Shown: one piece after another, positions 563-26,612 of the stretch
How positions within the stretch are numbered: the stretch's first letter is position 1
How the letters are laid out: each line of letters begins with the position of its first letter
Assembly: GCA_964355745.1 (NCBI GenBank)
Contig: CAYHEN010000002.1
Span: forward strand, 1-42,788
Length of the DNA stretch: 42,788 bases
Source: Candidatus Woesearchaeota archaeon
GTDB taxonomy: Archaea > Nanobdellota > Nanobdellia > Pacearchaeales > GW2011-AR1
Direction of reading: 5' to 3'
The notes under the pieces: generated by a model
The model's input: the letters and a program-made list of their open reading frames with translations, nothing else
Told to the model about the DNA's origin: nothing
The model's database searches: none
Program-made: the position numbers and the translations under genes

Positions 563-613
563 TTCTAAAAAATGAAAAACAGAACATTTTTCAAAATCCT
601 CACTTCGTTACAA

Positions 614-654
614 CTCGTAACTCCGCTGGTATGGATTACACGCGAAATCGTTTG
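614..654 (-). repeat. degenerate GA-bracketed hairpin element (A5)
   Basis: minus strand AA-ACGATTTCGC-GT-GTAATCCATAC-CA-GCGGAGTTAC-GA-G; resembles 11391..11443 and 21746..21788. Confidence 0.7.
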
Positions 655-678
655 GATACAAAACAGGAGTTTTGCATA

Positions 679-996
679 ATGGACGAAACAAGATTACAAG
701 AGTTGCAGATTCTTGAGCAGAGATTGCAGAATTCAATTCTCCAGAAACAGGCTTTTCAGATGGAACTCGCAGAAACTAATTCTGCCCTGAAAGAAGTTGA
801 AAAATCAGGAGAAGAAGTTTTCAAAATAATCGGACAATTGATGATTAAGGCGGAAAAAGGAAAAATTCAGGAAGAATTGTTATCCAAGGAAAAAATTTTG
901 GAATTAAGGATAAAGACATTCGAGAAACAGGAGAATTCTTTAAGCGAACAAGTGGAAAAAATCAGAGACGAACTGACAAAATCCATGAAAAAGTAA
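679..996 (+). CDS. pfdB: prefoldin subunit beta
   Basis: coiled coil with central VFKIIGQLMI hairpin; start MDET at 679 has a GGAG SD; conserved gene order. Confidence 0.93.
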   Translation: MDETRLQELQILEQRLQNSILQKQAFQMELAETNSALKEVEKSGEEVFKIIGQLMIKAEKGKIQEELLSKEKILELRIKTFEKQENSLSEQVEKIRDELTKSMKK

Positions 997-10584: not shown

Positions 10585-10929
10585 ATGACAACAAGAGAGA
10601 TAACAATAAAAGAGTCTAAAGGAGCATTTTCACTCTTCAAAAAATCCTCTAAAGGCAAAGAAGGGTATGATTTTTCAGGAATATCTGCCTTAAGGCAATT
10701 ATTGAATAATGAGAAAGCCAGGATTTTGAGTGTCATAAAAACAGAAAAACCTGCCTCTTTATACGATTTAGCTAAAAAGCTGAACAGGAGTTTTAAGTCA
10801 GTCCACGATGATATCAGACTTTTAGAGAGATTTGGCTTTATAGAACTCGTTGAAGAGAAAGTGAATAACAGGACAAGACACAAGCCTCATTTAATTGCAG
10901 ATACTATAACAATACATCTCAAGATTTAA
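10585..10929 (+). CDS. winged-HTH protein (HVO_A0114-like regulator/antitoxin)
   Basis: KPASLYDLAKKLNRSFKSVHDDIRLLERFGFI HTH. Confidence 0.8.
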   Translation: MTTREITIKESKGAFSLFKKSSKGKEGYDFSGISALRQLLNNEKARILSVIKTEKPASLYDLAKKLNRSFKSVHDDIRLLERFGFIELVEEKVNNRTRHKPHLIADTITIHLKI

Positions 10930-11474
10930 TAATAGACATTAAGCGAAACTTCATAATTATTGCCCCTCTTGGCGAAATCCTGAAATGCTCCTTTATAATT
11001 TCTTGTTTCATTTCCTTTTTTAAACAATAATCTTTCTTGCTCTCCAACACTTATGCTGAATTTATACCCTTTTACAGCGCTTTGTTCATTGATATTCCAC
11101 GCATTTTCTATTATTCCCTTTAAACTCTCATTGAGGATTTCGCAACTGTCTCTTTCATCAAGGCACTTTTCTTCTCTCTCACAAGCCACAATTAAATCCT
11201 GTATTGATAAAAATTCTATCTGATTCTCACACTCGCTCGTGTATTGCAATGCAGATTGTATAAAACTTTCTACTTCATAACTCTCAACAGCACTCTTGTC
11301 AGGACTTCTAAGCAAAAACCCAAGCAAAACCAGTAAAACCACTGAAACTATGACTACGATTACTACAAATCCCACCATTTCTTCTTGTCCCGAGCGATTT
11401 CGCGAGAGAGTCGGTTTAATCCAGTGACGAGCGAAGTCGCGAGCAGTTTTGATTTTATTTGTTTTTATTTTCAT
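10926..11474 (-). CDS. class III signal peptide (type IV pilin-like) protein
   Basis: RSG|QEEMVGFVVIVVIV hydrophobic stretch; start 11474 by ATGA overlap and GAGGAG SD. Confidence 0.8.
   Translation of the reverse strand: MKIKTNKIKTARDFARHWIKPTLSRNRSGQEEMVGFVVIVVIVSVVLLVLLGFLLRSPDKSAVESYEVESFIQSALQYTSECENQIEFLSIQDLIVACEREEKCLDERDSCEILNESLKGIIENAWNINEQSAVKGYKFSISVGEQERLLFKKGNETRNYKGAFQDFAKRGNNYEVSLNVYY
11391..11443 (+). repeat. GA-bracketed hairpin element A1, in-frame within a pilin leader
   Basis: C-GA-GCGATTTCGC-GA-(23 nt with TAATCCA)-GA-GCGAAGTCGC-GA-G. Confidence 0.85.
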
Positions 11475-12052
11475 GTTCTCTTCTCCTCTGAACTCACCAT
11501 AAGTCGTGCAAGTTCGCATTTATCATATATCATAATTCCATTTGATTCTTTTCTGCATAAGGAAACAAAATTAGAGATAGCAGGCAGAGTGTTCACGTCT
11601 TTGTCAAGAATATTCAAGATATCACAATCAGGATAGTTGCTCTCACTGCAAACGACATTTCCTTCGCTTGGATAAACTTTCCTTAATTCTATCTTTGCCA
11701 CTCTCCAGAGCTCTGAATCTTCGTCTACTCTGTACTTTAAAGCGATTAATTTGTCAAAATCAACACAGCTTGTTCTGCTACTCCCAAATGCATTTCCGCA
11801 TGAAAATTCAGGAGAATTCGCTAATTTAGAAACAAGGAGCATTGCATTCTGCTCTTCAAGATTAGTCGCTGTTTTCTTGACATTATACAATCTTATAGAC
11901 AAGAAGAAAATACCGACAAGTATGAATAAGAAAGTCACAGCTACAAGCATAAAAGTCATCTGCTGGATTTTCATTTGTGCCGAGCGACTTCGCGGAAGAC
12001 AGGCTCGTGATAAACGAGCGAAGTCGCGAGTTGTTTTTGTTATTTTTCTCAT
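11471..12052 (-). CDS. class III signal peptide (type IV pilin-like) protein
   Basis: RSA|QMKIQQMTFMLVAVTFLFILVGIFF; Cys-containing globular domain. Confidence 0.8.
   Translation of the reverse strand: MRKITKTTRDFARLSRACLPRSRSAQMKIQQMTFMLVAVTFLFILVGIFFLSIRLYNVKKTATNLEEQNAMLLVSKLANSPEFSCGNAFGSSRTSCVDFDKLIALKYRVDEDSELWRVAKIELRKVYPSEGNVVCSESNYPDCDILNILDKDVNTLPAISNFVSLCRKESNGIMIYDKCELARLMVSSEEKRT
11981..12030 (+). repeat. GA-bracketed hairpin element A2, in-frame within a pilin leader
   Basis: C-GA-GCGACTTCGC-GG-(20 nt)-GA-GCGAAGTCGC-GA-G, perfect 10-bp stem. Confidence 0.85.
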
Positions 12053-12067
12053 TTTTGATTCTTTTAT

Positions 12068-12153
12068 GCGATTTCCATCGGAGGCAGTTGGAGAAATCGC
12101 CCCAACACTACCGAAAAGGAAGGTTGATTGTCAAGGAAACCAAGGTTTCCTTG
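12068..12153. repeat. hairpin module B (second copy at 21685) plus palindrome CAAGGAAAC-CAAG-GTTTCCTTG
   Basis: GCGATTTC...GAAATCGC; about 60 bp aligns with 21685..21743. Confidence 0.8.
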
Positions 12154-12155
12154 CA

Positions 12156-13094
12156 TTACCATAACATGCAAATCCCCGCGTTATTTTTCTCTTCTATTAT
12201 GTCTGCTTTCATTTTGACTAAAGCCAAATGCTCAGAGCTTCTTAAACTTGAAGCCATGTCGCTTAATTCTTCCAAATCATTTCCAAGATTTTCTCCACAC
12301 CCTTTTTTCTTGGTAATCATTTCTTTATCCTTGTATAATAAGGAAATCTCCTTTACTCTCATCATCAACCTGTTCACTTGGCATTCATAAACATCCTTGT
12401 TTGAGAAAATCGCAGCATACATCAATGCTTTTGCATCTTCCCCAATCCCCGCGAAATACATGTTCTCTCCATCTTTTTCAACAACCCCTGAATCATAATC
12501 AACATTTATGTCACAATTTCCTCCACCAAAACAAACTTTTATTTCTTCTCCAGTGCACCACCCTTCAACCAGCAGGTTGCTCTGGTTTAAATCCAATATT
12601 TCTTCTTCTACATCATTTGGAGCGCTGATAAAACAATAAAAATCATTTGCAGAAGTCATGTAGATTAAATCAGTTATCTTGAAGGGAAATTGAAAAGGTT
12701 TTGAGAAAATGTAAAATTTTTTTCCTTCAATTTCTTCATCTGAGAAAATATATTTGTTATTGAAGAAGACATTTATATCTGTCTTAGTCCATTTGTTAAA
12801 ATTCTTTTGGTCTAATTGTATTATCTGTCTTCCAAAGCTGCCAAGCTCATCGCAACTATTATGAATTCTTGTCTCAGAAGGAATGCTTATAGAGGTTGTT
12901 TGACTTGATTCAAAGCTCGTTTCAAGAGGATTTAACAGGATTCCAATCTCTTTTCCTGTTTCAGCACTTATGATTTCTTTTTCTGTGCTTATCAATCTCG
13001 TGCTGAAATAAATAGCAAAAAATAAGATTATTGCTCCTGCAATCAATGCAAAAAGCCAACCAAAGGATATTTCTAAAGCACCTCTTTTAATCAT
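12156..13094 (-). CDS. class III signal peptide (pilin-like) protein
   Basis: MIKRG|ALEISFGWLFALIAGAIILFF. Confidence 0.8.
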   Translation of the reverse strand: MIKRGALEISFGWLFALIAGAIILFFAIYFSTRLISTEKEIISAETGKEIGILLNPLETSFESSQTTSISIPSETRIHNSCDELGSFGRQIIQLDQKNFNKWTKTDINVFFNNKYIFSDEEIEGKKFYIFSKPFQFPFKITDLIYMTSANDFYCFISAPNDVEEEILDLNQSNLLVEGWCTGEEIKVCFGGGNCDINVDYDSGVVEKDGENMYFAGIGEDAKALMYAAIFSNKDVYECQVNRLMMRVKEISLLYKDKEMITKKKGCGENLGNDLEELSDMASSLRSSEHLALVKMKADIIEEKNNAGICMLW

Positions 13095-13512
13095 TTTCCA
13101 AACCCCTTAGATATTTTTTAATTAAAATATGAATCATGTTTTTTATTTCCTTGATATTTTCCCTGGTTTCTTCTACTGAAATATCTTTGCCATAATAATT
13201 TATCGAATTTCTGATTTTTCTGAATCTGTCAAATTTTCTCGATAACGCTTCTTCTTCTAATTCTTTTAAAAAAGATGTAAATGCTTCATGTGAATAAATT
13301 TTATAACCCCTAATAGAGGAAATTGCTTCTAATATACTTCTTAAGACATCATAATAATTGGTCATTAGTTTCCTTGATGAACTTTTGTCTATCCCTAGTT
13401 TATCTAAGAATTTAAGATCTTCAATTGAATTTTTTAATAGCGATTTAGATAGAGATTTATCTATAGATGCTTTTCTTATAATTTCTTCCCTAATAAAATC
13501 TTTAAAATCCAT
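13087..13512 (-). CDS. HEPN-domain protein (toxin of an MNT-HEPN pair)
   Basis: helical HEPN pattern, YSHEA, RKIRNSINYYG; TAATG coupling to the upstream MNT gene. Confidence 0.78.
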   Translation of the reverse strand: MDFKDFIREEIIRKASIDKSLSKSLLKNSIEDLKFLDKLGIDKSSSRKLMTNYYDVLRSILEAISSIRGYKIYSHEAFTSFLKELEEEALSRKFDRFRKIRNSINYYGKDISVEETRENIKEIKNMIHILIKKYLRGLEND

Positions 13513-14051
13513 TAAAAAATCTCCCAAAATCCATAAAGTATTTTGCCATTAATGATATTATTCAATAACTCCGTATTTTTTATTTTCATTTTTTCTATTT
13601 CTTTTTTTGAATGGACAAATATCTGAATTTTATGTCCAAGTTTTTCCTCAAATTTTTTTAAGTTTATTTCTTTTTTTAACAGACTTAAAACGAATATGTC
13701 TATATCACTATTTTTTATATTTTCTGCTTTAGAAAAGCTCCCAAATAAAATTATTGCTTCTGGATGATTAAATTCCTGTGCAAGATACCCAATTAATCCA
13801 GACTCATATAATAGGTTTATATTATAATTTATCCTAAGCCTCTTAAACTTTTCATTACTTTCATCTGCCTTAAATATCAGATGATTCAATTTTCTCTCTG
13901 ATATCAAAATTTTCTCTTTTTCAAGTTTTTTTAGATGTTTGGATATTGTTGTTGGCGATTTTTTAAGGAGTTTTGATATTTGTCTTACATGAAATTCCTT
14001 CCCCGGTTCGCTAAAAAAGATCTCCAAGATATTGTTCATTTTAAAAGACAA
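13512..14051 (-). CDS. wHTH-fused minimal nucleotidyltransferase (MNT antitoxin)
   Basis: N-terminal HTH; GSFSKAENIKNSDID matches GS-x10-DxD. Confidence 0.88.
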   Translation of the reverse strand: MSFKMNNILEIFFSEPGKEFHVRQISKLLKKSPTTISKHLKKLEKEKILISERKLNHLIFKADESNEKFKRLRINYNINLLYESGLIGYLAQEFNHPEAIILFGSFSKAENIKNSDIDIFVLSLLKKEINLKKFEEKLGHKIQIFVHSKKEIEKMKIKNTELLNNIINGKILYGFWEIF

Positions 14052-14117: not shown

Positions 14118-14567
14118 TTATCTCTCAACTCTCACAAGGCTCTCCCCATAGCCTTTTACTATTGTCAAGCTTACTTTTCCCTTGACATTCTGTATGCAGT
14201 AAGGGTCTTCATCTTTTGTAATCTTAGCAATATCTATATTCTCAATTAAATCTCCTTTTATCAAAGTGCTGGAAACAAATTCCAAATTCTGAAATTCATC
14301 GTCTTTAAAACATACTGCACTTACTTTATTTGGAAGAGGATATTTAATGTTCTGGCTTCCCTGAGAACTTTTCCACATTGTGTCAATATCTTGCTGAAAA
14401 TCTCTCAGGAAATTTTCAATCTGAATAGAATCCTGCAACTCGATAAATTTTGTTATAGCATAAAATCCAAATGCAATAAAAACAATTATTAATATGATAG
14501 AAAAAATCATGCCGAAAGATAAATTTAATTGTCCTTTATGATTTTTCATCTTCCTCTTTTTATTCAT
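14118..14567 (-). CDS. class III signal peptide (pilin-like) protein
   Basis: HKG|QLNLSFGMIFSIILIIVFIAFGF. Confidence 0.82.
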   Translation of the reverse strand: MNKKRKMKNHKGQLNLSFGMIFSIILIIVFIAFGFYAITKFIELQDSIQIENFLRDFQQDIDTMWKSSQGSQNIKYPLPNKVSAVCFKDDEFQNLEFVSSTLIKGDLIENIDIAKITKDEDPYCIQNVKGKVSLTIVKGYGESLVRVER

Positions 14568-14601: not shown

Positions 14602-14949
14602 TTAATCCAATGCCAAACTTATTTTTATAGCGAGATTAACCTTATTCATTAAATAAAAATCCAATGAACTTATTTTTTTTATTATTCTGGACTTATCAAT
14701 TGTTCTAATCTGATTTAATAGTATGGTAGAATCATTATTTAATTTTGAATCTTTTTTAGATAGAAAAACATTTGTTGGAAATTCTTTTGTAAATTTTTTT
14801 GAAGTCAATGACGCAACAATTGTTACAGGAGAATATTTATTGGATAAATCATTCTGAATTATTAAAACAGGTCTTATTCCTCCTTGCTCACTTCCTTCTA
14901 CTGGTTCTAAATTTGCAAGAAAAATATCTCCTCTCTTAATTTCTACCAT
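14602..14949 (-). CDS. mazF: MazF/PemK family endoribonuclease toxin
   Basis: RGDIFLANLEPVEGSEQGGIRPVLIIQND and QIRTIDKSR. Confidence 0.95.
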   Translation of the reverse strand: MVEIKRGDIFLANLEPVEGSEQGGIRPVLIIQNDLSNKYSPVTIVASLTSKKFTKEFPTNVFLSKKDSKLNNDSTILLNQIRTIDKSRIIKKISSLDFYLMNKVNLAIKISLALD

Positions 14950-15179
14950 TTTTCATCTTCTAATCCATCCATTAAAGTTCCTTCCCATTCTTTAGCTATT
15001 CTAAGACTCTCTTCAGCCATCTCTTTACATCCTTCAATAAGCAATTCTTTCTGCTCTCTTCTACATTTTTCAGCAGTTTTCATTAGAGTTAAAATAACAT
15101 CTTCATATGTCTCTTTTTTAGACTTCATCCTATCAAGAGCTTTTTTTACACTTTCATTAAGCTGAATTGTTGTAACCAT
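14943..15179 (-). CDS. RHH-type antitoxin
   Basis: TTIQL...ETYEDVI ribbon-helix-helix, acidic tail, overlaps mazF. Confidence 0.8.
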   Translation of the reverse strand: MVTTIQLNESVKKALDRMKSKKETYEDVILTLMKTAEKCRREQKELLIEGCKEMAEESLRIAKEWEGTLMDGLEDEKW

Positions 15180-15392: not shown

Positions 15393-15470
15393 ATTAAGCC
15401 GAGCGATTTCATGAGTATCGCGCCAAATTGTGAGCGAAGTCGTGAGTTAAAGAAACTGTAGGTTGTCTCG
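15393..15470 (+). repeat. GA-bracketed hairpin element A3 with conserved tail
   Basis: ATTAAGCC-GA-GCGATTTCAT-GA...GA-GCGAAGTCGT-GA-GTTAAAGAAACTGTAGGTTGTCTCG; matches 21739..21812. Confidence 0.85.
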
Positions 15471-17812: not shown

Positions 17813-19528
17813 TTAACCTATGTCTTTATCTATAGATAATGCGTTTTTTACATCTCCTTGTCTGTTAATATAATTCACTTTATTTCCGCAATCTCCTAAT
17901 GAATTGCAGATATCCATTAATTCTGCTGCCCAAGAATCTTCTGTACACTCGCAATTTTCTTTGCAATCTCCACTTGTACCTCCAGGTATTAATGTTTCAA
18001 GTATTGTTTTCCCCCTTACTACATAGCATGAAGTAGTTGCTGCAGCACAATCAGATATCACTCCTTCTGGTAGATTTCTATTAAATCCAGGAGGAAATAA
18101 AGGAACGCATGAACCCCATCCAGCATCTTCAGAGTCTTTAAGTATAGGAGCAGAATCCGCCAATTCCTCTGAAAAATCAAAATCTCCCTTTGATTTAGGC
18201 TCCCATCCAGAATAAGTCTTCCATTCACAATCCCTTACATCACTATTCTCACAATCTTCTTTAGTTGTTTGATCAACACAATCCTGCCAAACATTCACTT
18301 TGCAACCCGCATTTAAGAAATTTTCATCTTCATCTTTAATTTTATTATCATTTTCATCTACAACCCCATAAGTACAAATTTTCTGCCTTGTCATGCTTGT
18401 TGGATCACATGCATAAAAAATAACTTCCCCATTCATACATAATGCTTTGTAATCATTTGCTCCAGGAGTGTCCCAATTAGCTATCTTTGAGTCTGTCACA
18501 CACCAACTCTCTCCATGTCTTGGCTTTCCATTTTCATTACCCTCTTGAGGATAATTTCCAGTGTAATCAACACAGTCCAGATTCTTGCAGAAATTATCTC
18601 CAACTAATGTTCCTCCAACTATTTTCTCTCCTGTTTCTTTCTGTTTGCACATGCTTCCAGAAAGAAAATCACAATCCCCACATATTGCTGAATTTTTGTT
18701 TCCTTTTCCATCCCCGCATTTAGATCCTTGAATTTTTGTCCAATAATCCCAATAATCATTTGAACCAGCAGGGTCAGTGTCTTTATCTGCTCTTTTTGAA
18801 TCATAAATATTTGCTAAATTTCCGCAACCATCAATAAACCTGACATCATTTCTTTCATCGCACGAGGTTTTTTTCGTCGGAACACAATTTGTTCCTAAAT
18901 TCGGTGCAGAGCATAAAAATCCAGGATGAAATTCGACATCTGAAAGAGAGGAAATTCTTCCTTTATTCTGGCATTGTTGTCTTGTTGTTCGCTCACATGT
19001 TGTTATAAAATCTTTTGTATAAACACAAGCTCCTTCTGTTCCGGGATTTGCACTTGCCAAGCAAGTTAATTCATCTTTAATATTGGGACGATAACTCGTA
19101 TTTACTCCATAGTATGTTGACATTCTGCTACATGTAACTTTGGTTACAAATGCTGACTGACTTCCTATCAAACAACACCCTAATTGGCATTGGTCAAGTT
19201 CGCTCTTTGGTTTTTCATCCCAATCTCCACCAGCATTCTCACAAACTATTCTTGGTGTATTTGACATGCATATTCCATCTTGCTGAATTATACATGTTCC
19301 AGAATTACAAAAAGAAGTTGTGTCACAAGAAGCAGCGATAACATTCAATTCTTCTCCAGTTAAATGTGAAATTCCTGTTGCACATTTTGATTCACTATCT
19401 ACATTTTGACAATAGGCAGGATTAGCGCCTGTTGTTTTCTCACAGCAATATGTTGTTGCTGAGCCAATTCCAATTAAGAAAATTCCAAGAATTAATACTA
19501 AGCAAACCATTACCTCTTTCTTTATCAT
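17813..19528 (-). CDS. secreted very Cys-rich protein
   Basis: signal peptide from MIKKEV (ATGA overlap at 19525-19528); dozens of Cys including CC pairs. Confidence 0.78.
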   Translation of the reverse strand: MIKKEVMVCLVLILGIFLIGIGSATTYCCEKTTGANPAYCQNVDSESKCATGISHLTGEELNVIAASCDTTSFCNSGTCIIQQDGICMSNTPRIVCENAGGDWDEKPKSELDQCQLGCCLIGSQSAFVTKVTCSRMSTYYGVNTSYRPNIKDELTCLASANPGTEGACVYTKDFITTCERTTRQQCQNKGRISSLSDVEFHPGFLCSAPNLGTNCVPTKKTSCDERNDVRFIDGCGNLANIYDSKRADKDTDPAGSNDYWDYWTKIQGSKCGDGKGNKNSAICGDCDFLSGSMCKQKETGEKIVGGTLVGDNFCKNLDCVDYTGNYPQEGNENGKPRHGESWCVTDSKIANWDTPGANDYKALCMNGEVIFYACDPTSMTRQKICTYGVVDENDNKIKDEDENFLNAGCKVNVWQDCVDQTTKEDCENSDVRDCEWKTYSGWEPKSKGDFDFSEELADSAPILKDSEDAGWGSCVPLFPPGFNRNLPEGVISDCAAATTSCYVVRGKTILETLIPGGTSGDCKENCECTEDSWAAELMDICNSLGDCGNKVNYINRQGDVKNALSIDKDIG

Positions 19529-20307
19529 ATTATTGTTGATGTAGCATATCCTGCAGGCCAAACCTGGCTTCTGACAGCAAACTGTAATTTATCTCCTGTA
19601 TCTCTATTCGTTAAAATGTAAACTTTCCCTCCATCTCCATCGCCTAATCTTTCAACTTTCAAATGAGGATAATATGTCATATACGTTTGTGGTTCTGAAT
19701 CTCCATAAAGAGTTTCCCATTCTATAATGCTACTGGCAATTGCAGTTAATTCATAAAGATTATTGTTCAACATTACAACAAAAGAATCATAGCTTTGTGT
19801 GTCCTCCCCCTTCGTCAAAGTCAAGGAATAATCAAATGTTGAAACAATTCTTTGAGGAAACAATTCAATTCTCCTGTCTCCTGATTTCAAATCCACACTA
19901 TACCCTTTTTTCTCGTAACTACTCTTCAAAGAAGCAAAACAAAATTTAACACTCTCTTCTATTTCATTCTTTATCTCCAATTCAATATGTTGCTTTAATG
20001 CTGGTTGCTGAACAGTGCAAGGTTTGTAATATTCTGTTGTATAGCATAAATATTCAATTTTTTCATCTTTGTAAAGAATATAGTTCTCTGGATTTAAACT
20101 TCCTCCCTGGAGAGATAATTTATCTGCAATGTCTTTTATCTCATCTTCCAAGCATGTCTGAATGTATGAAGGAGGATTTTTTTCTTCTCCTCCCAAAGTT
20201 GATTTAATTTGTGGATAGAAACTATAAATTAGAAAAGCAAGAGCAACAATTATTATAGCAATAATAATGAAAATAGTAACTTGCCCCCTTTTCTCCCCTT
20301 TTTTCAT
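19525..20307 (-). CDS. class III signal peptide (pilin-like) protein
   Basis: KRG|QVTIFIIIAIIIVALAFLIYSF. Confidence 0.85.
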   Translation of the reverse strand: MKKGEKRGQVTIFIIIAIIIVALAFLIYSFYPQIKSTLGGEEKNPPSYIQTCLEDEIKDIADKLSLQGGSLNPENYILYKDEKIEYLCYTTEYYKPCTVQQPALKQHIELEIKNEIEESVKFCFASLKSSYEKKGYSVDLKSGDRRIELFPQRIVSTFDYSLTLTKGEDTQSYDSFVVMLNNNLYELTAIASSIIEWETLYGDSEPQTYMTYYPHLKVERLGDGDGGKVYILTNRDTGDKLQFAVRSQVWPAGYATSTII

Positions 20308-20807: not shown

Positions 20808-20920
20808 TCGTGTCAGTCGTCTACTCAGACTGATGCTCATTTATGGATTATCTCGCATCAATCTTCTATTCGGACTAATACTCGTCACTGGATTAAATTG
20901 TCTCTCTCGTATTAGTCTTC
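20808..20920 (-). repeat. tandem GA-bracketed hairpins A6/A7 plus a fifth arm, downstream of PCNA
   Basis: five 10-mers each flanked by GA; AGACTAATAC/GTATTAGTCC and AGATTGATGC/GCATCAGTCT; both loops contain TAATCCA. Confidence 0.85.
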
Positions 20921-21637
20921 GGTCTCCACTCTCGGAGCGAGCAAGAAATTCAGCTCCATGTGTTCTGTCTTGATATCTATCTTTAAGGGATGGTCGTTAG
21001 CGAAATGCAACAAAGTTTTCTCGCATAGCTTTGCTCCCTTGAGGAATTTCTGGAGATATTCCAGACTGTATTTGGATTTGCATTCTTCTGCTTCTATCTT
21101 CGCTTCGTCTCCAGAAAATTCGCTTCTCGCAGAATTCAATCCTTTTGACTCAATAATAAATTCTCCCTTTTTTATTATGAAAGAACACGCGTCAGAAACA
21201 ACAATGCAATCTTCAATAGCAGAAATCAAATCCACAGAAGAAATTTCCACTCTTGTGCTGTAATCTAATGTAGGCATTTCTTTTTCCTGCCCCTCTACTT
21301 CAATTAAATTCAAGCCAAAGTTTCTTCTTATCTTGTCGATAACTTGAATGTTCAGAAAATTTTCTCTCTTTTCCAAAATTAAAGAAGTTGAGCTACTGCA
21401 TCTCCTCAGAATTCTCTTCAAACTGTCTAAGTTAATTCCCAAAACTTCGTTTCCTGTCTCAAACTGAGAAAACGCGCTTTTCGGAAGCCTGAATCTGACC
21501 ATTGCAACGTTCGCTGGGTCGATTGCAGTTATGCTCATGCCGAATTCACTAATCTTGATTCTCACTTCTGTAACTAACTCAGATATAACCTCTATTACTT
21601 TTGATAGCAAACTCGGGTCTTCTAATTTTACTAGCAT
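20912..21637 (-). CDS. pcn: DNA polymerase sliding clamp PCNA
   Basis: AIDPANVAMV, SKYSLEYL, FLLAPRVE motifs. Confidence 0.98.
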   Translation of the reverse strand: MLVKLEDPSLLSKVIEVISELVTEVRIKISEFGMSITAIDPANVAMVRFRLPKSAFSQFETGNEVLGINLDSLKRILRRCSSSTSLILEKRENFLNIQVIDKIRRNFGLNLIEVEGQEKEMPTLDYSTRVEISSVDLISAIEDCIVVSDACSFIIKKGEFIIESKGLNSARSEFSGDEAKIEAEECKSKYSLEYLQKFLKGAKLCEKTLLHFANDHPLKIDIKTEHMELNFLLAPRVETED

Positions 21638-21684
21638 ATTTATGGAAGTATTGTTCCTCTTTTAAGCATTATTGTTTTAGAGTT

Positions 21685-21812
21685 GCGATTTCCATCAGGG
21701 GCAGTTAGAGAAATCGCTCAACAGCGCCAAGAGGGAAAATTAAGCCGAGCAACTTTGCGTTTTAATCCATAATTAGCAAGGTTGCGAGTTAAGAAAACCG
21801 TAGGTTGTCTCG
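21685..21812 (+). repeat. composite element: module B + hairpin A4 + tail
   Basis: B matches 12068; A4 stem GCAACTTTGC/GCAAGGTTGC with TAATCCA loop; tail matches 15446..15470. Confidence 0.85.
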
Positions 21813-23900: not shown

Positions 23901-26612
23901 ATGGAAGAAAAGAAAGAGGAACTTTCTGCGTCTGCCTCTAAGGAGGACATTCGGAAGAGTGTAAGCGAGGAGAGGATAAGAAAGCTCACTCACTTGTATT
24001 ATTCCAAGCCAGAGATACAAAAAATTATATTTGATTTTTCGCAAAATCGTGAAATCTGTCCGAGATATTTTGAAGGTTTCGGCAGACGTCCTGACTCTTT
24101 GCAGTATGAATCAGATATTTTTGAGTTGGTGAAAAAAGGCGCGACTTCTTTCCATTGTTCAGAAGAACTTTGGTCTCAGCCACTAAGCTTGTCAACAAAC
24201 ATGGATGAAAAACAATTGAATGGACTGAGAACAGGATGGGACTTGATTTTGGATATTGACAGCAAATATATTGATTACAGCAAGATTTATGCAAAGATAA
24301 TAATCGAATTTTTGGAGTTTAGTGGTGTGAGGAATATAGGAGTGAAGTTTAGTGTTTCTGGAGATACTCCCATTTTGATAGAAAAAAAAGGAGAATTTTC
24401 TTTAATTTCTATTTTAGAAGCTGTAGAATATATAAAACAAAAGAAAGAATTAAAAGTTTTATCATTGGATAAATCAGGAAAAGTTAAGCTTTCAAAAATT
24501 TATGATTTTTTAGAACATAAGGATACAATCTATGAAATAATCCACTCACAAAGCACTATGCCTCTAAAAGTAACAGGACACCATTCTGTTTTTGTTTGGG
24601 ATATGGGAGATATAATCCAAAAGAAAGTTGAAGAATTAAAAAAAAGGGATTTTTTAATATCTTATAATTCAATAGAAAATCCCCTTGTAAAAAAAGATTT
24701 GAAAATAATTAACGAATTTGACTTTGGTAAAAATCAAAATTCTAAAAAATTAATAAAAAAAGAGATAATTGTAACAGAAGATTTAATGAGACTTATAGGT
24801 TATTTTTTAGCAGAAGGACATGTAACAAATATTATTAATCAGGTGGGTTTCACTTTCAATAAAAACGAGATTGAATATATAAACGATGTTAAAAGTTTAT
24901 TATTTTCATTAACAGGGAAAAAACTTTCTATAAGAAGTCCAAATTCAAACTCCGTTCAAATTCTAATTCACTCAAAAGAATGGGCTTCTTTTTTTGATAA
25001 TTTTTGCGGAAAGAAAAAGGATAAGCATATACCTGCCTTTGCTTTCAAAGCTTCAAGGGAACTTTTTTTAGAGTTGTTAAAAGGATACATTCGTGGAGAT
25101 GGATATAAAAAAGGAGAGTATGGGGTTGTTGTTAAATCTGTTTCAAAAAGATTGATTACAGAAATGATTTGGCTATGCAAATTAAATAATATTTCTTGTA
25201 ATTTGTCTTCGGAACAAAATAAACCCCATAAACTGCCTCAAGGAAATTTTTTCAAGGGAAGTTTAGTTTATTTGTTAAGAATACCCAAATCTGAATTAGT
25301 TAATTTAGAATTTCATAGAGAAAGAAATAAATTTTCTCCTTATGCTGGAGATAGAATTTTCCCTACAGACGGCTTAAAGGAAGTTTACAATCAGATAAAG
25401 CCTAAAATGTTTAATTCTCACCGAGCAGAACAGATGACTCTTAAAAAAGATGGAGCAAATCTTAATAGAATAAAAAAAGTTTTGGATTGGTTTGAAAAGT
25501 TTAAAGAGATAAATCCCGATAAAAACTCCCAGAAGATTCTGGATAATTATAAGAAATTATTTAATTCAGATATTTCTATCATCAAAATTAAAGATATTTC
25601 AAGAAAAGAAGAGGAATTAGTTTACGATATCTCTGTGGAAGAAACAGAATCTTTCTTTGGAAATTATTACCCTGTGCTTTTGCATAATTCCGGATCAAAA
25701 GGATTTCATATGATAATTCCATGTAAAGCTTTTCCAAAAGAAGTGAATCATGTTGAAACAAAAAACATGTTTCCAGAATGGGCAAGAATCCTTACAAAAT
25801 ATATTATAGAAAAAACCAAACCTAAATTAATAGAAGAGATTACAGAACTCTTTTCTCCAAACAAATACATAAGAGACAATACAGCACCAAAAGAGGTCAT
25901 GCCAGATTTAATTCTTGTTTCTCCACGCCATTTGTTCAGAATACCTTATTCTCTCCATGAAAAAACTGCATTAGCCAGCGTTGTTATCAACAAGAATAAA
26001 ATTTCTGATTTTCAATTGCGAGACGCTAATCCATTAAAAGCAGAGATAAAAGATTTTACTCCTGAATGCAAATCCGGAGAAGCAACAAGGCTTTTGATGC
26101 AGGCACTTGATTGGAGCAAAGAGACAAATCAGGGAGATAGTGAAAAGAGAAGCATAGAATACAAACCAATTCAAATAACAGACAAGTCTGAAAAGAATTA
26201 TCCTCCCTGCATTAAAAAAATTTTAAATGGCATGGCTGATGGAAAGAAAAGGGCTTTATTTGCTTTGCTGAATTTCTTCTGTTCAATTGCAATGGAAAAA
26301 GACGAGCTGGAAAAGATTTTGTATTCTTGGAATGAAAAGAATAATCCAAAACTTCACGAAGGATACATCAAATCTCAAATAGCATATGCAATAAAAAGAA
26401 AACCTGTTCTGCCTCCAAACTGCATGGAATTTTATCAGGGAATTTCTGTTTGCTATCCTGACGAACTCTGCAAGTTGATAAAAAATCCTGTTAATTATGT
26501 TGTGAAAAAAAATTTTCAGTCTAACAAATACAAAAGCGATTATGCATATGCATCACGAAGAACTGAAATAAAAAAACTAAAAACTAAGGATAATTTTAAA
26601 AACAACAATTGA
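23901..26612 (+). CDS. fused PriS-PriL DNA primase containing an intein
   Basis: WDLILDID (motif I), F|SGSKGFH (motif II), RIPYSLH (motif III); C-terminal PPC...PPNC...C...C Fe-S-type PriL domain. Confidence 0.92.
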   Translation: MEEKKEELSASASKEDIRKSVSEERIRKLTHLYYSKPEIQKIIFDFSQNREICPRYFEGFGRRPDSLQYESDIFELVKKGATSFHCSEELWSQPLSLSTNMDEKQLNGLRTGWDLILDIDSKYIDYSKIYAKIIIEFLEFSGVRNIGVKFSVSGDTPILIEKKGEFSLISILEAVEYIKQKKELKVLSLDKSGKVKLSKIYDFLEHKDTIYEIIHSQSTMPLKVTGHHSVFVWDMGDIIQKKVEELKKRDFLISYNSIENPLVKKDLKIINEFDFGKNQNSKKLIKKEIIVTEDLMRLIGYFLAEGHVTNIINQVGFTFNKNEIEYINDVKSLLFSLTGKKLSIRSPNSNSVQILIHSKEWASFFDNFCGKKKDKHIPAFAFKASRELFLELLKGYIRGDGYKKGEYGVVVKSVSKRLITEMIWLCKLNNISCNLSSEQNKPHKLPQGNFFKGSLVYLLRIPKSELVNLEFHRERNKFSPYAGDRIFPTDGLKEVYNQIKPKMFNSHRAEQMTLKKDGANLNRIKKVLDWFEKFKEINPDKNSQKILDNYKKLFNSDISIIKIKDISRKEEELVYDISVEETESFFGNYYPVLLHNSGSKGFHMIIPCKAFPKEVNHVETKNMFPEWARILTKYIIEKTKPKLIEEITELFSPNKYIRDNTAPKEVMPDLILVSPRHLFRIPYSLHEKTALASVVINKNKISDFQLRDANPLKAEIKDFTPECKSGEATRLLMQALDWSKETNQGDSEKRSIEYKPIQITDKSEKNYPPCIKKILNGMADGKKRALFALLNFFCSIAMEKDELEKILYSWNEKNNPKLHEGYIKSQIAYAIKRKPVLPPNCMEFYQGISVCYPDELCKLIKNPVNYVVKKNFQSNKYKSDYAYASRRTEIKKLKTKDNFKNNN
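24351..25688 (+). mobile_element. intein (446 aa) with LAGLIDADG homing endonuclease
   Basis: block A SVSGDTPILI, block B VTGHHSVF, LIGYFLAEG and LLKGYIRGDG, block F VYDISVE, terminal HN then Ser+1. Confidence 0.95.

Follow-up and report, generated by a model that had tools for sequence, protein, structure and literature searches.

A palindromic repeat family related to tRNA introns lies in frame beside predicted cleavage sites of archaeal class III signal peptides

Two adjacent genes, named here g1 and g2, are located on the minus strand of the 42,788-nt window, i.e. the whole stretch of DNA that was analyzed. Both encode proteins with a class III signal peptide, defined as a short basic leader, a small residue (G, A or S) at position -1 and about 20 hydrophobic residues starting at +1. 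The window contains three other class III-like genes. These features are listed below, with ↓ marking predicted cleavage sites.

10926..11474, minus strand: g1, class III signal-peptide protein of 182 aa; predicted mature N-terminus QEEMVGF..., then a hydrophobic helix
11385..11390, minus strand: predicted cleavage site of g1, GGA (Gly -1, 11388-11390) and CAA (Gln +1, 11385-11387), aligned with orthologue leaders ...K[GA]↓QEEM
11471..12052, minus strand: g2, class III signal-peptide protein of 193 aa; predicted mature N-terminus QMKIQQMTFML...
11975..11980, minus strand: predicted cleavage site of g2, GCA (Ala -1) and CAA (Gln +1)
12156..13094, minus strand: class III-like gene without an element (MIKRG↓ALEISF)
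14118..14567, minus strand: class III-like gene without an element (..KNHKG↓QLNLSF; leader MNKKRKMKNHKG)
19525..20307, minus strand: class III-like gene without an element (MKKGEKRG↓QVTIF)

The class III features were found in both gene families, orthologues included (...K[GA]↓QEEMVGF and ...K[GA]↓Q[ML]KIQQM, each followed by hydrophobic residues). Gene g1 is present in 90 of 100 family genomes, and the adjacent g1-g2 pair likewise in 90/100; residues Q30, E31, E32, G35 and F36 of g1 are invariant among 28 sequences. The start codon of g1 is likely the ATG at 11474, which overlaps the g2 stop codon (ATGA), rather than the ATG at 11519; orthologues show this coupling of start and stop as well. 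In the AF2 model of g1 (mean pLDDT 86.9), a long N-terminal helix is combined with an alpha/beta head; the helix (residues 30-56) begins at Gln +1, and the leader is predicted to be disordered (residues 1-29, pLDDT 51-55). A Foldseek search of the PDB with this model gave nothing at E≤0.001, the best rows being weak matches to ribosomal uS3. Profile searches of the element-bearing genes, which included PF07790 and TIGR02537, gave no Pfam or NCBIfam match for g1, g2, pB and pC; pA (C3:16411..16950) alone passed TIGR02537 (32.6 bits, cut-off 20). A loose class III regular expression gave 59 matches in the genome, mostly ordinary membrane proteins, and missed pC; the number of about 16 class III genes is a rough, hand-picked one. 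The genome also contains a gene for an A24 prepilin/preflagellin peptidase (C31:1153-1494; PF01478, 39.2 bits, above cut-off), and a weak FlaK_Arch match was found too.

The leaders of g1 and g2 each contain a GC-rich hairpin repeat, A1 and A2 respectively, inserted in frame and in antisense orientation, after residue -2 and directly before the Gly/Ala at -1. Thus, ORF 10926..11519 (minus strand) translates as ...MKIKTNKIKT-ARDFARHWIKPTLSRNRS-G↓QEEMVGF and ORF 11471..12052 (minus strand) as MRKITKT-TRDFARLSRACLPRSRS-A↓QMKIQQ. The units and their hairpin cores are as follows.

11391..11447, minus strand: inserted unit A1, 57 nt, 19 codons (TARDFARHWIKPTLSRNRS), in frame in the g1 leader according to the codon table
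11392..11443, plus strand: A1 hairpin core on the element-sense strand, GA-GCGATTTCGC ... GCGAAGTCGC-GA-G, with a-type loop ..GTCGGTTTAATCCAGTGAC..
11981..12031, minus strand: inserted unit A2, 51 nt, 17 codons (TRDFARLSRACLPRSRS), in frame in the g2 leader according to the codon table
11982..12030, plus strand: A2 hairpin core, perfect 10-bp stem GCGACTTCGC/GCGAAGTCGC

The original prediction had placed hairpin elements here from the sequence of the window alone, and A1 and A2 are indeed present at that position with the translations given for them. They have a common orientation and phase, each stops one codon ahead of G↓Q or A↓Q, and the leaders of the three other class III-like genes are short, all as had been described. 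Three aspects did not form part of that prediction: the antisense orientation relative to the mRNA, the membership of a tRNA-intron repeat family, and the use of one exact junction. In A1, as in A2, the paired arms form a 10-bp stem (GCGATTTCGC/GCGAAGTCGC), and the window has 4 matches to the arm motif CGAGCGAAGTCGCGAG when up to 3 mismatches are allowed, versus 0 in 100 shuffles. Predicted folding energies are -19.6 kcal/mol on the plus strand versus -14.6 on the mRNA strand for A1, and -24.8 versus -19.1 kcal/mol for A2. Independent Logan contigs of two runs span A2 and agree with it fully. At A1 the Logan contigs break within the repeat, yet either unique flank continues into half an element. 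A joint that "goes back 56" (X2) and depth peaks over the elements probably stem from other repeat copies, and were left out of the evidence.

Alignment of orthologous N-termini, proposed with the original prediction as a way to define empty sites, revealed that most leaders are short, for example MKNKKG↓QEEF; the long leader is thus not common to all orthologues. Units are lacking from 15 g1 and 17 g2 leaders in 17 genomes of other genera, and from 8 g1 and 10 g2 leaders at 11 loci within the genus; the site of A2 is unoccupied in 10 of 11 genus orthologues. A further comparison is provided by a contig of run X4, which comes from another study and is about 90% identical. It has 22 nt in place of the 79 nt at 11385-11463, and therefore lacks exactly the 57 nt of A1, its leader reading MKINQKSKRA↓QEEM. 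Since orthologues and this close relative do not have them, the units are insertions, and the sites are polymorphic. Comparison of occupied and empty sites showed no target-site duplication. In two other genera the terminal ..KRS of a unit directly adjoins Gln +1 and so supplies residue -1, and G015 probably keeps a remnant of a unit (..FVSSKRS↓Q).

Insertion into leaders is not restricted to g1 and g2. A second locus of the same genome, C3, has three further units in two more leaders, which read MEKKYSKH-[18 aa][17 aa]-G↓LSTIV and MKRGKN-[15 aa]-G↓QVWIE. Across 17 genus genomes, 17 units were found in 11 of the 62 gene copies, which belong to five families. All 17 lie between residues -2 and -1, in one orientation and one frame, and the junction is exactly the same in the 11 occupied genes. 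All leader units are free of stop codons and in frame, and they are concentrated in leaders far above the share that leaders have in coding sequence. Occupancy is patchy and differs among close relatives. An occupied leader has from one to three units, with four different loop types in the genus. Some tandem copies are identical (in G108, G109 and G101), and one unit of G101 has its loop inverted relative to the arms. G111 contains an element-like sequence upstream of an intact short leader, MGKKG↓Q.

A1 and A2 are members of a family of small palindromic, probably mobile repeats of 42-72 nt, in which two CGAGCGAnnTCGCGAG-like arms surround a variable loop. About 30 copies are present in this genome, and the family is widespread in this archaeal genus, whose genomes are small and DPANN-like; when both loci were used as BLAST queries, at least 9 of the 16 remaining genus genomes gave element-length matches elsewhere than at these loci. 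Its copies are found in coding and non-coding DNA alike, including a nested copy, one within another, at C19:3372-3464. Introns of tRNA-Gln, tRNA-Glu and tRNA-Arg consist of the family arms and a c-type core. A 42-nt unit is also present in frame in a conserved 250-aa protein that is not a pilin (C14), and its 14 residues are absent from 15/15 other aligned orthologues. The latter insertion has the same orientation as those in leaders, and an A^GGA junction, without any pilin context. Outside A1 and A2, the window contains the following elements.

603..641, minus strand: b-type copy, antisense, upstream of the prefoldin gene 631..996
12060..12165, minus strand: intergenic element upstream of g2 in gene sense, ..GGAAACCTTGGTTTCCTTGACAATCAACCTTCC.. 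plus a GCGATTTC..GAAATCGC hairpin
15399..15446, plus strand: family copy, 29 nt downstream of a gene for a 778-aa protein
20825..20925, minus strand: two adjacent copies with different stems, b-like (20825-20866) and a-like (20871-20925)
21745..21787, plus strand: b-type copy between the PCNA gene and a PHP-domain gene

The a-like copy at 20871-20925 has the stem GGACTAATAC/GTATTAGTC and includes the PCNA stop codon. The element at 12060..12165 resembles, by eye, the intron sequences that ARAGORN gives for tRNA-Ser(TGA) and tRNA-Val(GAC) of this genome, and its repeat D8 has a second copy at 21651-21717. Within the window, ARAGORN found no tRNA and Rfam at gathering scores no family. A scan with exact 16-mers gave at least 120 matches in genome contigs, mostly of GC-rich bacteria, and 10 in viral contigs, which is the chance level and uninformative on distribution.

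The stem of the family shows compensatory changes. Among 18 copies, G·U pairs outnumber A·C by 30 to 4; the strand with the G·U pairs is the one complementary to the pilin mRNAs, and in 5/5 leader copies the mRNA strand gives the weaker hairpin. The G·U bias shows that the hairpin is maintained on the antisense strand, and hints at a role at the level of RNA or single-stranded DNA that goes beyond that of a neutral passenger. Many non-coding copies share with the leader units a length divisible by three (42, 51 and 54 nt), and hence length alone is no proof of selection by translation.

Several observations bear on whether the units are translated. The codon tables of g1 and g2 show no in-frame ATG, GTG or TTG from the units to the cleavage site. 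Species with an element retain G/A-QEEM, encoded by GGA CAA GAA GAA, GCA CAA GAA GAA, GGA CAG GAG GAA or GGG CAA GAG GAA. This invariance of QEE..GF in the face of synonymous variation argues that translation begins upstream, and contradicts the possibility, considered in the original prediction, that the true starts lie downstream and the elements are untranslated. The Ser at -2 and Arg at -3, which had been noted as deviating from the usual Lys/Arg at -2, are indeed there; as a concern about processing they lose weight, since relatives have RSG↓Q, KSG↓Q and KSG↓L in leaders without an element. Together with the A24 peptidase gene and the disorder of the leader in the AF2 model, such leaders make processing of the enlarged leader by this peptidase plausible.

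In our view these results are probably best explained by a mobile palindromic element, similar to the Rickettsia palindromic elements (RPEs), that is translated and tolerated in a leader that is discarded. Elements would enter an A^G(G/C) junction, always in the same orientation; in class III signal peptides, the Lys/Arg-type codon (-2) and the Gly/Ala codon (-1) meet at this junction. Being multiples of three without a stop in frame, the units would be translated as 15-24 additional residues (T-R/P-D-...-R-N-R-S). The basic ..RNRS tail of the unit would, together with the native Gly/Ala, mimic natural cleavage sites of this lineage, so that an A24-family prepilin peptidase would remove the entire enlarged leader. 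If the whole leader is removed the mature protein is unchanged, and the insertion would be nearly neutral. The leader would then be a refuge, selected out of many insertions, and its occupation would not point to a function. The "safe haven" originally suggested fits all the comparative data, i.e. the units are insertions, in frame, stop-free and enriched in leaders; the discarding of the leader, its other component, is probable. Besides the G·U bias and the absence of both a target-site duplication and a linked transposase, a further point runs against this explanation: the shared junction is only weakly defined in DNA (A^G[GC]). Selection alone would equally permit other positions in the leader, and a targeting or gene-conversion step is therefore needed.

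No transposase could be linked to the family, and no autonomous element with matching ends was found. We considered a Y1 (IS200-like) transposase as mobilizer. The sole Y1 gene of this genome (Y1_Tnp, C22:546-893) is flanked by different, unique hairpins. Since its end hairpins are unrelated to the family and Y1 is found in 2 of 17 genus genomes, which are 75-92% complete, this candidate was rejected as unsupported.

It is rather unlikely, though worth weighing, that the units have been co-opted. The longer leader could tune prepilin processing or export, or the unit could act at the RNA level: as a post-start hairpin slowing translation, via an antisense transcript or a K-turn-like protein-binding site, or through pairing of excised tRNA-intron RNA with the copies in pilin mRNAs. 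Co-option is in line with the single junction of the 11 occupied genes, with the ..KRS that supplies residue -1 in two other genera and the probable remnant kept in G015, and with the stem covariation and G·U bias, which indicate structural selection on one strand. A K-turn consists of a canonical stem, a 3-nt bulge and tandem sheared G·A pairs leading into a second stem, and is bound by L7Ae. The helix base of the units has tandem GA (C-GA-stem...stem-GA-G) beside a 3-nt CCC bulge and is, judged by its sequence, K-turn-like; in A1 the pattern is ..UUGU-CCC-GA-stem...stem-GA-GCAG.., and the flanks of A2 pair less well. A function is difficult to reconcile, however, with the patchy occupancy (11/62) and the ~90% identical contig without A1, or with copy numbers varying from 1 to 3 and differing loop types. 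Identical units in non-coding DNA and in an unrelated protein, the weaker hairpin on the mRNA strand in all five leader copies and the lack of an Rfam match also argue against it.

Alternatively, a single leader may have gained a unit, after which gene conversion or template switching carried cassettes of leader plus unit to other class III genes, using the short shared sequence at the cleavage site (AAR AAR ↓ GSN CAR). The invariable site, orientation and frame and the absence of target duplication would be expected in that case; the identical tandem units of G108, G109 and G101 suggest slippage or recombination, and the inverted loop of G101 points to recombination between arms. We nevertheless regard this route as improbable, because leaders contain at least four loop sub-families, each of which is present in non-coding DNA too, because the insertion in the C14 protein has the same orientation and A^GGA junction without pilin context, and because the shared flanks comprise a few bases only. 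With similarly low probability, a tRNA-intron-derived mobile hairpin could home to the Lys^Gly/Ala junction of prepilin cleavage sites and now possibly act as a control module of surface-filament proteins. Pairing between excised, perhaps circular, tRNA-intron RNAs and the antisense copies in pilin mRNAs may couple tRNA splicing to pilin expression, or the extended ..RNRS-G leader may gate cleavage by the A24 peptidase.

The kinship with tRNA introns raises the question whether the units are bulge-helix-bulge (BHB) introns, removed from the pilin mRNAs by the tRNA splicing endonuclease and a ligase, in which case the real leaders would be short. Family arms and core do form genuine tRNA introns in this genome, EndA is present, and excision of a multiple of three would be frame-neutral, giving MKIKTNKIK-G↓Q. 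With relaxed settings our BHB scan was too permissive in AT-rich DNA (hundreds of weak candidates), and it was used with tRNA controls and for element-bracketing candidates only. It recovered a canonical hBHBh' at tRNA-Gln and tRNA-Val and a near-canonical one at tRNA-Glu. Among the rows listed, on the other hand, the mRNA-strand candidates around A1 and A2 all had H=3 with weak helices, and none combined a 4-bp central helix with a flanking helix; the opposite strand has weak candidates at 11390-11445 and 11980-12032 (H=4, h'=3). The leader units are antisense to the intron orientation, a reverse-complemented BHB would presumably have its bulges on the wrong side of the central helix, and G·U pairs of the stem become C·A mismatches in the mRNA, all of which makes splicing very improbable. 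Finally, a Met soon after either cleavage site and the element-like sequence of G111, which shows that a 5' UTR location is possible, would suit translation from downstream starts (MVGF.., MKIQQ..), which would place the units in the 5' UTR and make a relic of the Met-Lys-rich stretch upstream, but this is highly improbable given that element-free orthologues retain these Mets as well (QEEMVGF, QMKIQQM), that the preceding G/A, Q, E and E are conserved with synonymous changes in element-bearing species, that the upstream ATG is in frame and stop-free across all 17 genus units, and that g1 has its ATG coupled to the stop codon of g2.

The preferred explanation, a translated and tolerated mobile palindrome, can be compared with several known systems. 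REP/BIME-RAYT systems and IS200/IS605-derived palindromes are characterized by imperfect palindromes, G·T/G·U pairs on one strand, insertion in a specific orientation and the absence of a terminal duplication. The family resembles them in these four features, and the genome has one Y1 gene. In contrast to REP/RAYT, that gene has unrelated, unique flanking hairpins and is not co-distributed with the family (2/17 genus genomes); unlike REP/BIME, copies extend beyond extragenic DNA and have no conserved GTAG-like 5' tetranucleotide. As with MITEs, the family is small, non-coding and multicopy, with inverted-repeat arms and nested and tandem copies, but it has neither a target-site duplication nor an autonomous partner with matching ends, and therefore does not qualify as a MITE. 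ERIC/RU within ORFs represents a single case in a Sec-type signal sequence, whereas here insertion is recurrent at the class III junction, in five gene families and several species. Fujishima et al. in 2010 reportedly proposed transposition of tRNA introns among tRNA genes. The likeness to BHB introns lies in the c-type core and arms that form three tRNA introns here; the leader copies differ in being antisense, without a BHB on the mRNA strand among the rows listed, and behave as translated insertions. Protein genes of archaea are known to contain introns (PMC2738675), and BHB introns include the cbf5 pre-mRNA intron of Crenarchaeota. RPEs are short palindromic repeats for which insertion-free orthologues are known (PMC10969869). 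Both RPEs and this family are short palindromes with orthologues that lack the insertion, and the leader units and the C14 insertion are RPE-like in being in frame, stop-free and absent from orthologues, which defines a functional class and not a sequence family. The present family differs from RPEs in being archaeal, shorter (42-72 nt versus ~150 bp) and unrelated in sequence, and in also forming tRNA introns; it is found at one class III junction in one orientation, whereas RPEs are found at surface loops of assorted enzymes. In a literature search, which covered sources other than subscription journals and supplements, we found no description of hairpin units in pilin leaders.

Rickettsia is the main known source of selfish palindromes that persist within genes because they are translated, and comparable behavior now appears in ultrasmall archaea. 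The new aspects are the kinship with tRNA introns and the repeated use of one precise junction in a peptide that is probably cut off. The units constitute a natural test of which sequences upstream of its cut a prepilin peptidase tolerates, and they account for "pilin" leaders of excessive length, which class III predictors based on motifs may overlook. They also offer a tractable case for studying how archaeal tRNA introns and dispersed repeats relate and move.

The minus-strand reading frames 10926..11519 (translation MRTCTTYGEFRGEENMKIKTNKIKTARDFARHWIKPTLSRNRSGQEEMVGFVV...) and 11471..12052 (translation MRKITKTTRDFARLSRACLPRSRSAQMKIQQMTFML...) encode two adjacent proteins with class III, pilin-type signal peptides, g1 and g2, and each leader contains a GC-rich hairpin unit. 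On the plus strand the unit in g1, A1, reads CCGAGCGATTTCGCG-loop-CGAGCGAAGTCGCGAG and the one in g2, A2, reads CCGAGCGACTTCGCG-loop-CGAGCGAAGTCGCGAG. The arms are conspicuous because the G+C content of the window is only 26-39%, and the window has four occurrences of the arm motif, versus zero in 100 shuffles. Counted in codons, the inserted units are:

11391-11447, minus strand, A1, 57 nt
11981-12031, minus strand, A2, 51 nt

Both are followed by a single Gly or Ala codon and then by Gln. The translations, the plus-strand arms and the codon count confirm the original prediction that hairpin elements lie in-frame within two adjacent pilin-like leaders. Gene g1 likely starts at the ATG at 11474, which overlaps the stop codon of the upstream gene as ATGA; this stop-start coupling is also present in orthologues, and g1 and g2 form a conserved pair that is adjacent in 90 of 100 sampled family genomes.

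Neither g1 nor g2 matched Pfam or NCBIfam models, and Foldseek found no solved relative; it is thus from the class III signal-peptide pattern that the term pilin-like is taken. The AlphaFold2 model of g1 (mean pLDDT 86.9) shows a long helix (residues 30-56) that starts at Gln +1 and is followed by an alpha/beta head at the end, while residues 1-29 have a pLDDT of 51-55. Residues Q30, E31, E32, G35 and F36 are invariant in 28 aligned g1 proteins, which differ in length only on the N-terminal side of these residues. The neighbouring paralogue family pA, on contig C3, passes TIGR02537, and the genome encodes an A24-family peptidase that would cut off the enlarged leader. Ser at -2 with Arg at -3, taken before as an anomaly, is not confined to unit-bearing leaders: element-free leaders of relatives can likewise have Ser at -2 and Arg or Lys at -3 (LNRSG|Q, FSKSG|Q, RKKSG|Q and KKKSG|L; | marks the predicted cleavage site). 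The row of class III genes is broken by two toxin-antitoxin-like pairs (13087-14051 and 14602-15179), one consisting of a nucleotidyltransferase/HTH gene and its partner and the other of MazF/PemK and a VapB-like antitoxin. The window also harbours another type of in-frame selfish element, an intein with a LAGLIDADG domain that interrupts a fused small/large primase gene (23901-26612).

A second locus of the same genome (C3:16411-18174) contains three class III genes, of the families pA, pB and pC, two of which carry units:

C3 leader with two units, MEKKYSKH-[TRDPARHWIKRSLSRNRS][THDSACILRALTPRNRS]-G|LSTIVITV
C3 leader with one unit, MKRGKN-[TSDFAKYKGDMRNRS]-G|QVWIETV

A survey of the genus covered 62 copies of the five gene families (g1 11, g2 11, pA 10, pB 12 and pC 13, plus the 5 of the present genome, G000). 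Eleven of the 62 copies bear units, 17 in total (G000 5, G101 6, G108 2, G103 1, G109 2 and G111 1). All 17 are located between residue -2 and the Gly or Ala at -1, in identical orientation and frame and without a stop codon, and their translations start with T/A-R/P/H/S-D and finish with R-N/S-R-S. Leader units are 45, 51, 54, 57 or 72 nt long and have four loop types. Identical tandem units are present in G108 and G109, and G101 contains an array of three of which the last two are identical. In two other genera (G037 and G098) two related units each lie directly against Gln +1, and the last Ser of the unit therefore occupies -1; judged by sequence, ..FVSSKRS|Q of G015 looks like a unit remnant. 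A common hairpin-like sequence outside the CGAGCG family (..TTTAAAAGTGTGSTCACG..) is present in or before the g2 leader of G111 and G103.

Most orthologous leaders are short, rather than all sharing a long one. In 22 loci retrieved for 17 genomes outside the genus they are mostly short and basic and end with Gly, Ala or Ser (for example MKNKKG|QEEF, MRKNKKA|QEEM, MKIKTKA|QEEML and MVKNRKA|QLKIQQ), after which the mature N-terminus is invariant. Within the genus, represented by 16 other species, we read 11 g1/g2 loci: seven g1 leaders are short (including MKMNKKA|Q, MINKKA|Q and MRDKLA|Q), another is long but shows no recognisable unit and the remaining three have units, and the g2 junction is free of a unit in 10 of 11 loci. 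A contig from a sequencing run of a different study, with flanks ~90% identical to the window, has 22 other letters between 11384 and 11464 versus 79 in the window; the difference, 57 nt, equals A1 exactly in length, and the leader of this contig, read with the window flanks, is MKINQKSKRA|QEEMVGF. The match ends at 11978, 3 bases before the A2 unit (2 before the conserved C preceding A2), which is compatible with, but no proof of, absence of A2. At the level of sequence, these comparisons indicate that the leader units are insertions. The g2 leader of G083 contains a run of N with a duplicated ..IKMRKA.. on either side, which suggests an assembly gap at the place of unit insertion.

The 792 kb genome (57 contigs) contains ~30 copies of this repeat family outside tRNA genes, with sub-families distinguished by their loops:

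sub-family a, loop ..AGAGAGTCGGTTTAATCCAGTGAC..
sub-family b, loop ..TGTAATCCATA..
sub-family c, loop ..ATAAGAACCGAGGTTCCTAATACCTCCTAT...

In tRNA-Gln(CTG), tRNA-Glu(TTC) and tRNA-Arg(TCG), the intron is made up of the c core and the same arms. Element-length BLAST matches, with the two loci as queries, occur elsewhere in at least nine other genus genomes. A b copy is nested in the loop of an a copy at C19:3372-3464, as part of a tandem of a b copy and this a copy directly 3' of tRNA-Val(GAC) (C19:3372-3509). Seven b copies lie antisense within a conserved ~110-nt unit just 5' of start codons:

window 603-641, antisense b copy
C1:59787-59825, antisense b copy
C5:18889-18927, antisense b copy
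C6:17027-17067, antisense b copy
C13:6972-7010, antisense b copy
C24:8844-8882, antisense b copy
C28:3877-3915, antisense b copy

This ~110-nt unit ends in ..GGATACAAAAYCAGGAGNTTTTGCATA-ATG, precedes unrelated genes (prefoldin in the window) and is possibly a cassette, repeated in the genome, that serves as promoter or 5' UTR. At C14:13092-13130 a linker within a conserved 250-aa protein contains, in frame, a 42-nt b unit (TSNLASMDYTQSRS). As in the leaders, the same orientation is used and, here too, GGA is the next codon; the 14 residues of the unit are missing from each of the 15 other aligned genus orthologues. A sense c-type copy is present in the C-terminal low-complexity part of a 274-aa ORF (C6:18325-18397; ..ASDFAIRTKVPNTPHEYPVTTRVRRQ..). 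Two window copies (15399-15470 and 21745-21812) have a common 3' extension, GTTAARRAAACYGTAGGTTGTCTCG, unseen at other copies, and two adjoining copies downstream of PCNA (20825-20925) have stems unlike the consensus; because the PCNA stop codon lies inside the second, the C-terminal residues of PCNA may be element-derived. An element like the introns of tRNA-Ser(TGA) and tRNA-Val(GAC) fills the spacer between a 312-aa class III gene and g2 (12060-12165, minus strand, sense to the genes), and a partial second copy lies upstream of the b copy at 21745 (21651-21717); thus, dispersed relatives of several different tRNA introns exist.

Read antisense, almost every copy, whether in coding or non-coding DNA, has A at one border and G(G/C) at the opposite border, these being bases of the target or of the element. 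Exactly this junction arises where a Gly or Ala codon comes after a Lys codon, and a unit of a multiple of three nucleotides entering it in fixed orientation would read T-R-D-...-R-N-R-S. In the most likely reading, the 15-24 added residues would be harmful at most such junctions in proteins but harmless in a discarded leader. By a rough, hand-picked count the genome has ~16 class III genes, and leaders therefore make up less than 0.1% of codons; despite this, five of the genome's seven in-ORF units lie in them (six of the seven were compared with orthologues).

The main fact that such a passenger model leaves unexplained is that the hairpin favours one strand. For the 10-bp stem, 18 copies are in good register; on the element-sense ('CGAG') strand they show 30 G·U pairs versus 4 A·C mismatches. 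Changes on both sides of the stem affect at least five of its ten positions, such as position 3 (G-C/A-T) and position 8 (C-G/T-A). It is thus on a single strand, in RNA or single-stranded DNA, that the hairpin is kept. In one copy a b-type loop is enclosed by an entirely different stem. The maintained strand is the sense strand in tRNA genes and antisense to the mRNA in all leader copies, and in each of the five leader copies of G000 it is predicted to fold more stably than the mRNA strand, the difference being 3.1 to 6.6 kcal/mol. At its base the helix (C-GA-stem...stem-GA-G), next to a CCC bulge, has a K-turn-like sequence. That the units were co-opted for a regulatory role is possible but unlikely.

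Target duplication was not seen at the units. Spread among leaders by gene conversion appears quite improbable. A Y1 transposase was rejected as an unsupported candidate mobiliser, being a single gene with unrelated ends (CTCGGGC-TAAA-GCCCGAG and GCCGAG-TAT-CTCGGC) found in only 2 of 17 genus genomes:

C22:484-1012, IS200-like element, Y1 transposase (~137 aa) between two unique perfect hairpins

Splicing of the units from mRNA is very improbable. Our scan for bulge-helix-bulge (BHB) motifs recovered the helix-bulge-helix-bulge-helix in canonical form where splice sites are annotated in tRNA-Gln and tRNA-Val, and in near-canonical form at tRNA-Glu. Around A1 and A2, no bracketing BHB with a complete central helix was present on the mRNA strand among the matches listed, which argues against splicing, and the plus strand gave weak candidates only. 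In the reverse complement of a BHB, the bulges would be wrongly placed relative to the central helix, on its other side, and such a structure would be no substrate. The sole splicing endonuclease gene encodes a single 174-aa unit that matches TIGR00324 end to end. As to the tRNA genes themselves, the 'tRNA-Stop(tta)' with intron called by ARAGORN at C48:4045-4151 has a body nearly identical to tRNA-Gln(CTG) and is probably tRNA-Gln(TTG) with a mis-placed intron call, not a suppressor. A different conserved hairpin, GAGCATRTTCGCG...GCGAGYGTGCGAA, which as written is on the strand opposite to the tRNA genes, lies directly 5' of tRNA-Leu/tRNA-Lys genes (C1:57914-57965, C3:36-87 and C15:11297-11340) and is perhaps a leader or promoter element that these tRNA genes have in common.

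Translation from starts downstream of the units is hardly credible: in g1 and g2 the stretch from unit to cleavage site contains no in-frame start codon, and unit-bearing species retain G/A-Q-E-E with synonymous differences. Together with the coupling of the g1 start to the g2 stop, this supports translation through the units.

In-frame insertions that are translated have their closest functional analogue in the Rickettsia palindromic element, which is inserted in-frame into many genes and translated (PMC10969869). An enterobacterial repeat is described as forming part of one predicted signal peptide (PMC2759123), and introns in archaeal protein genes are known for cbf5 (PMC2738675). Leader insertions are absent from the searched passages of a 2026 survey that covers archaeal type IV filament systems (PMC13705601), and in the full-text literature we found nothing on hairpin repeats in class III leaders or on dispersed tRNA-intron relatives in DPANN genomes. 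On the basis of this comparison, we regard the leader units as in-frame palindromic elements of an archaeal kind, related to tRNA introns and with specificity for a single junction.
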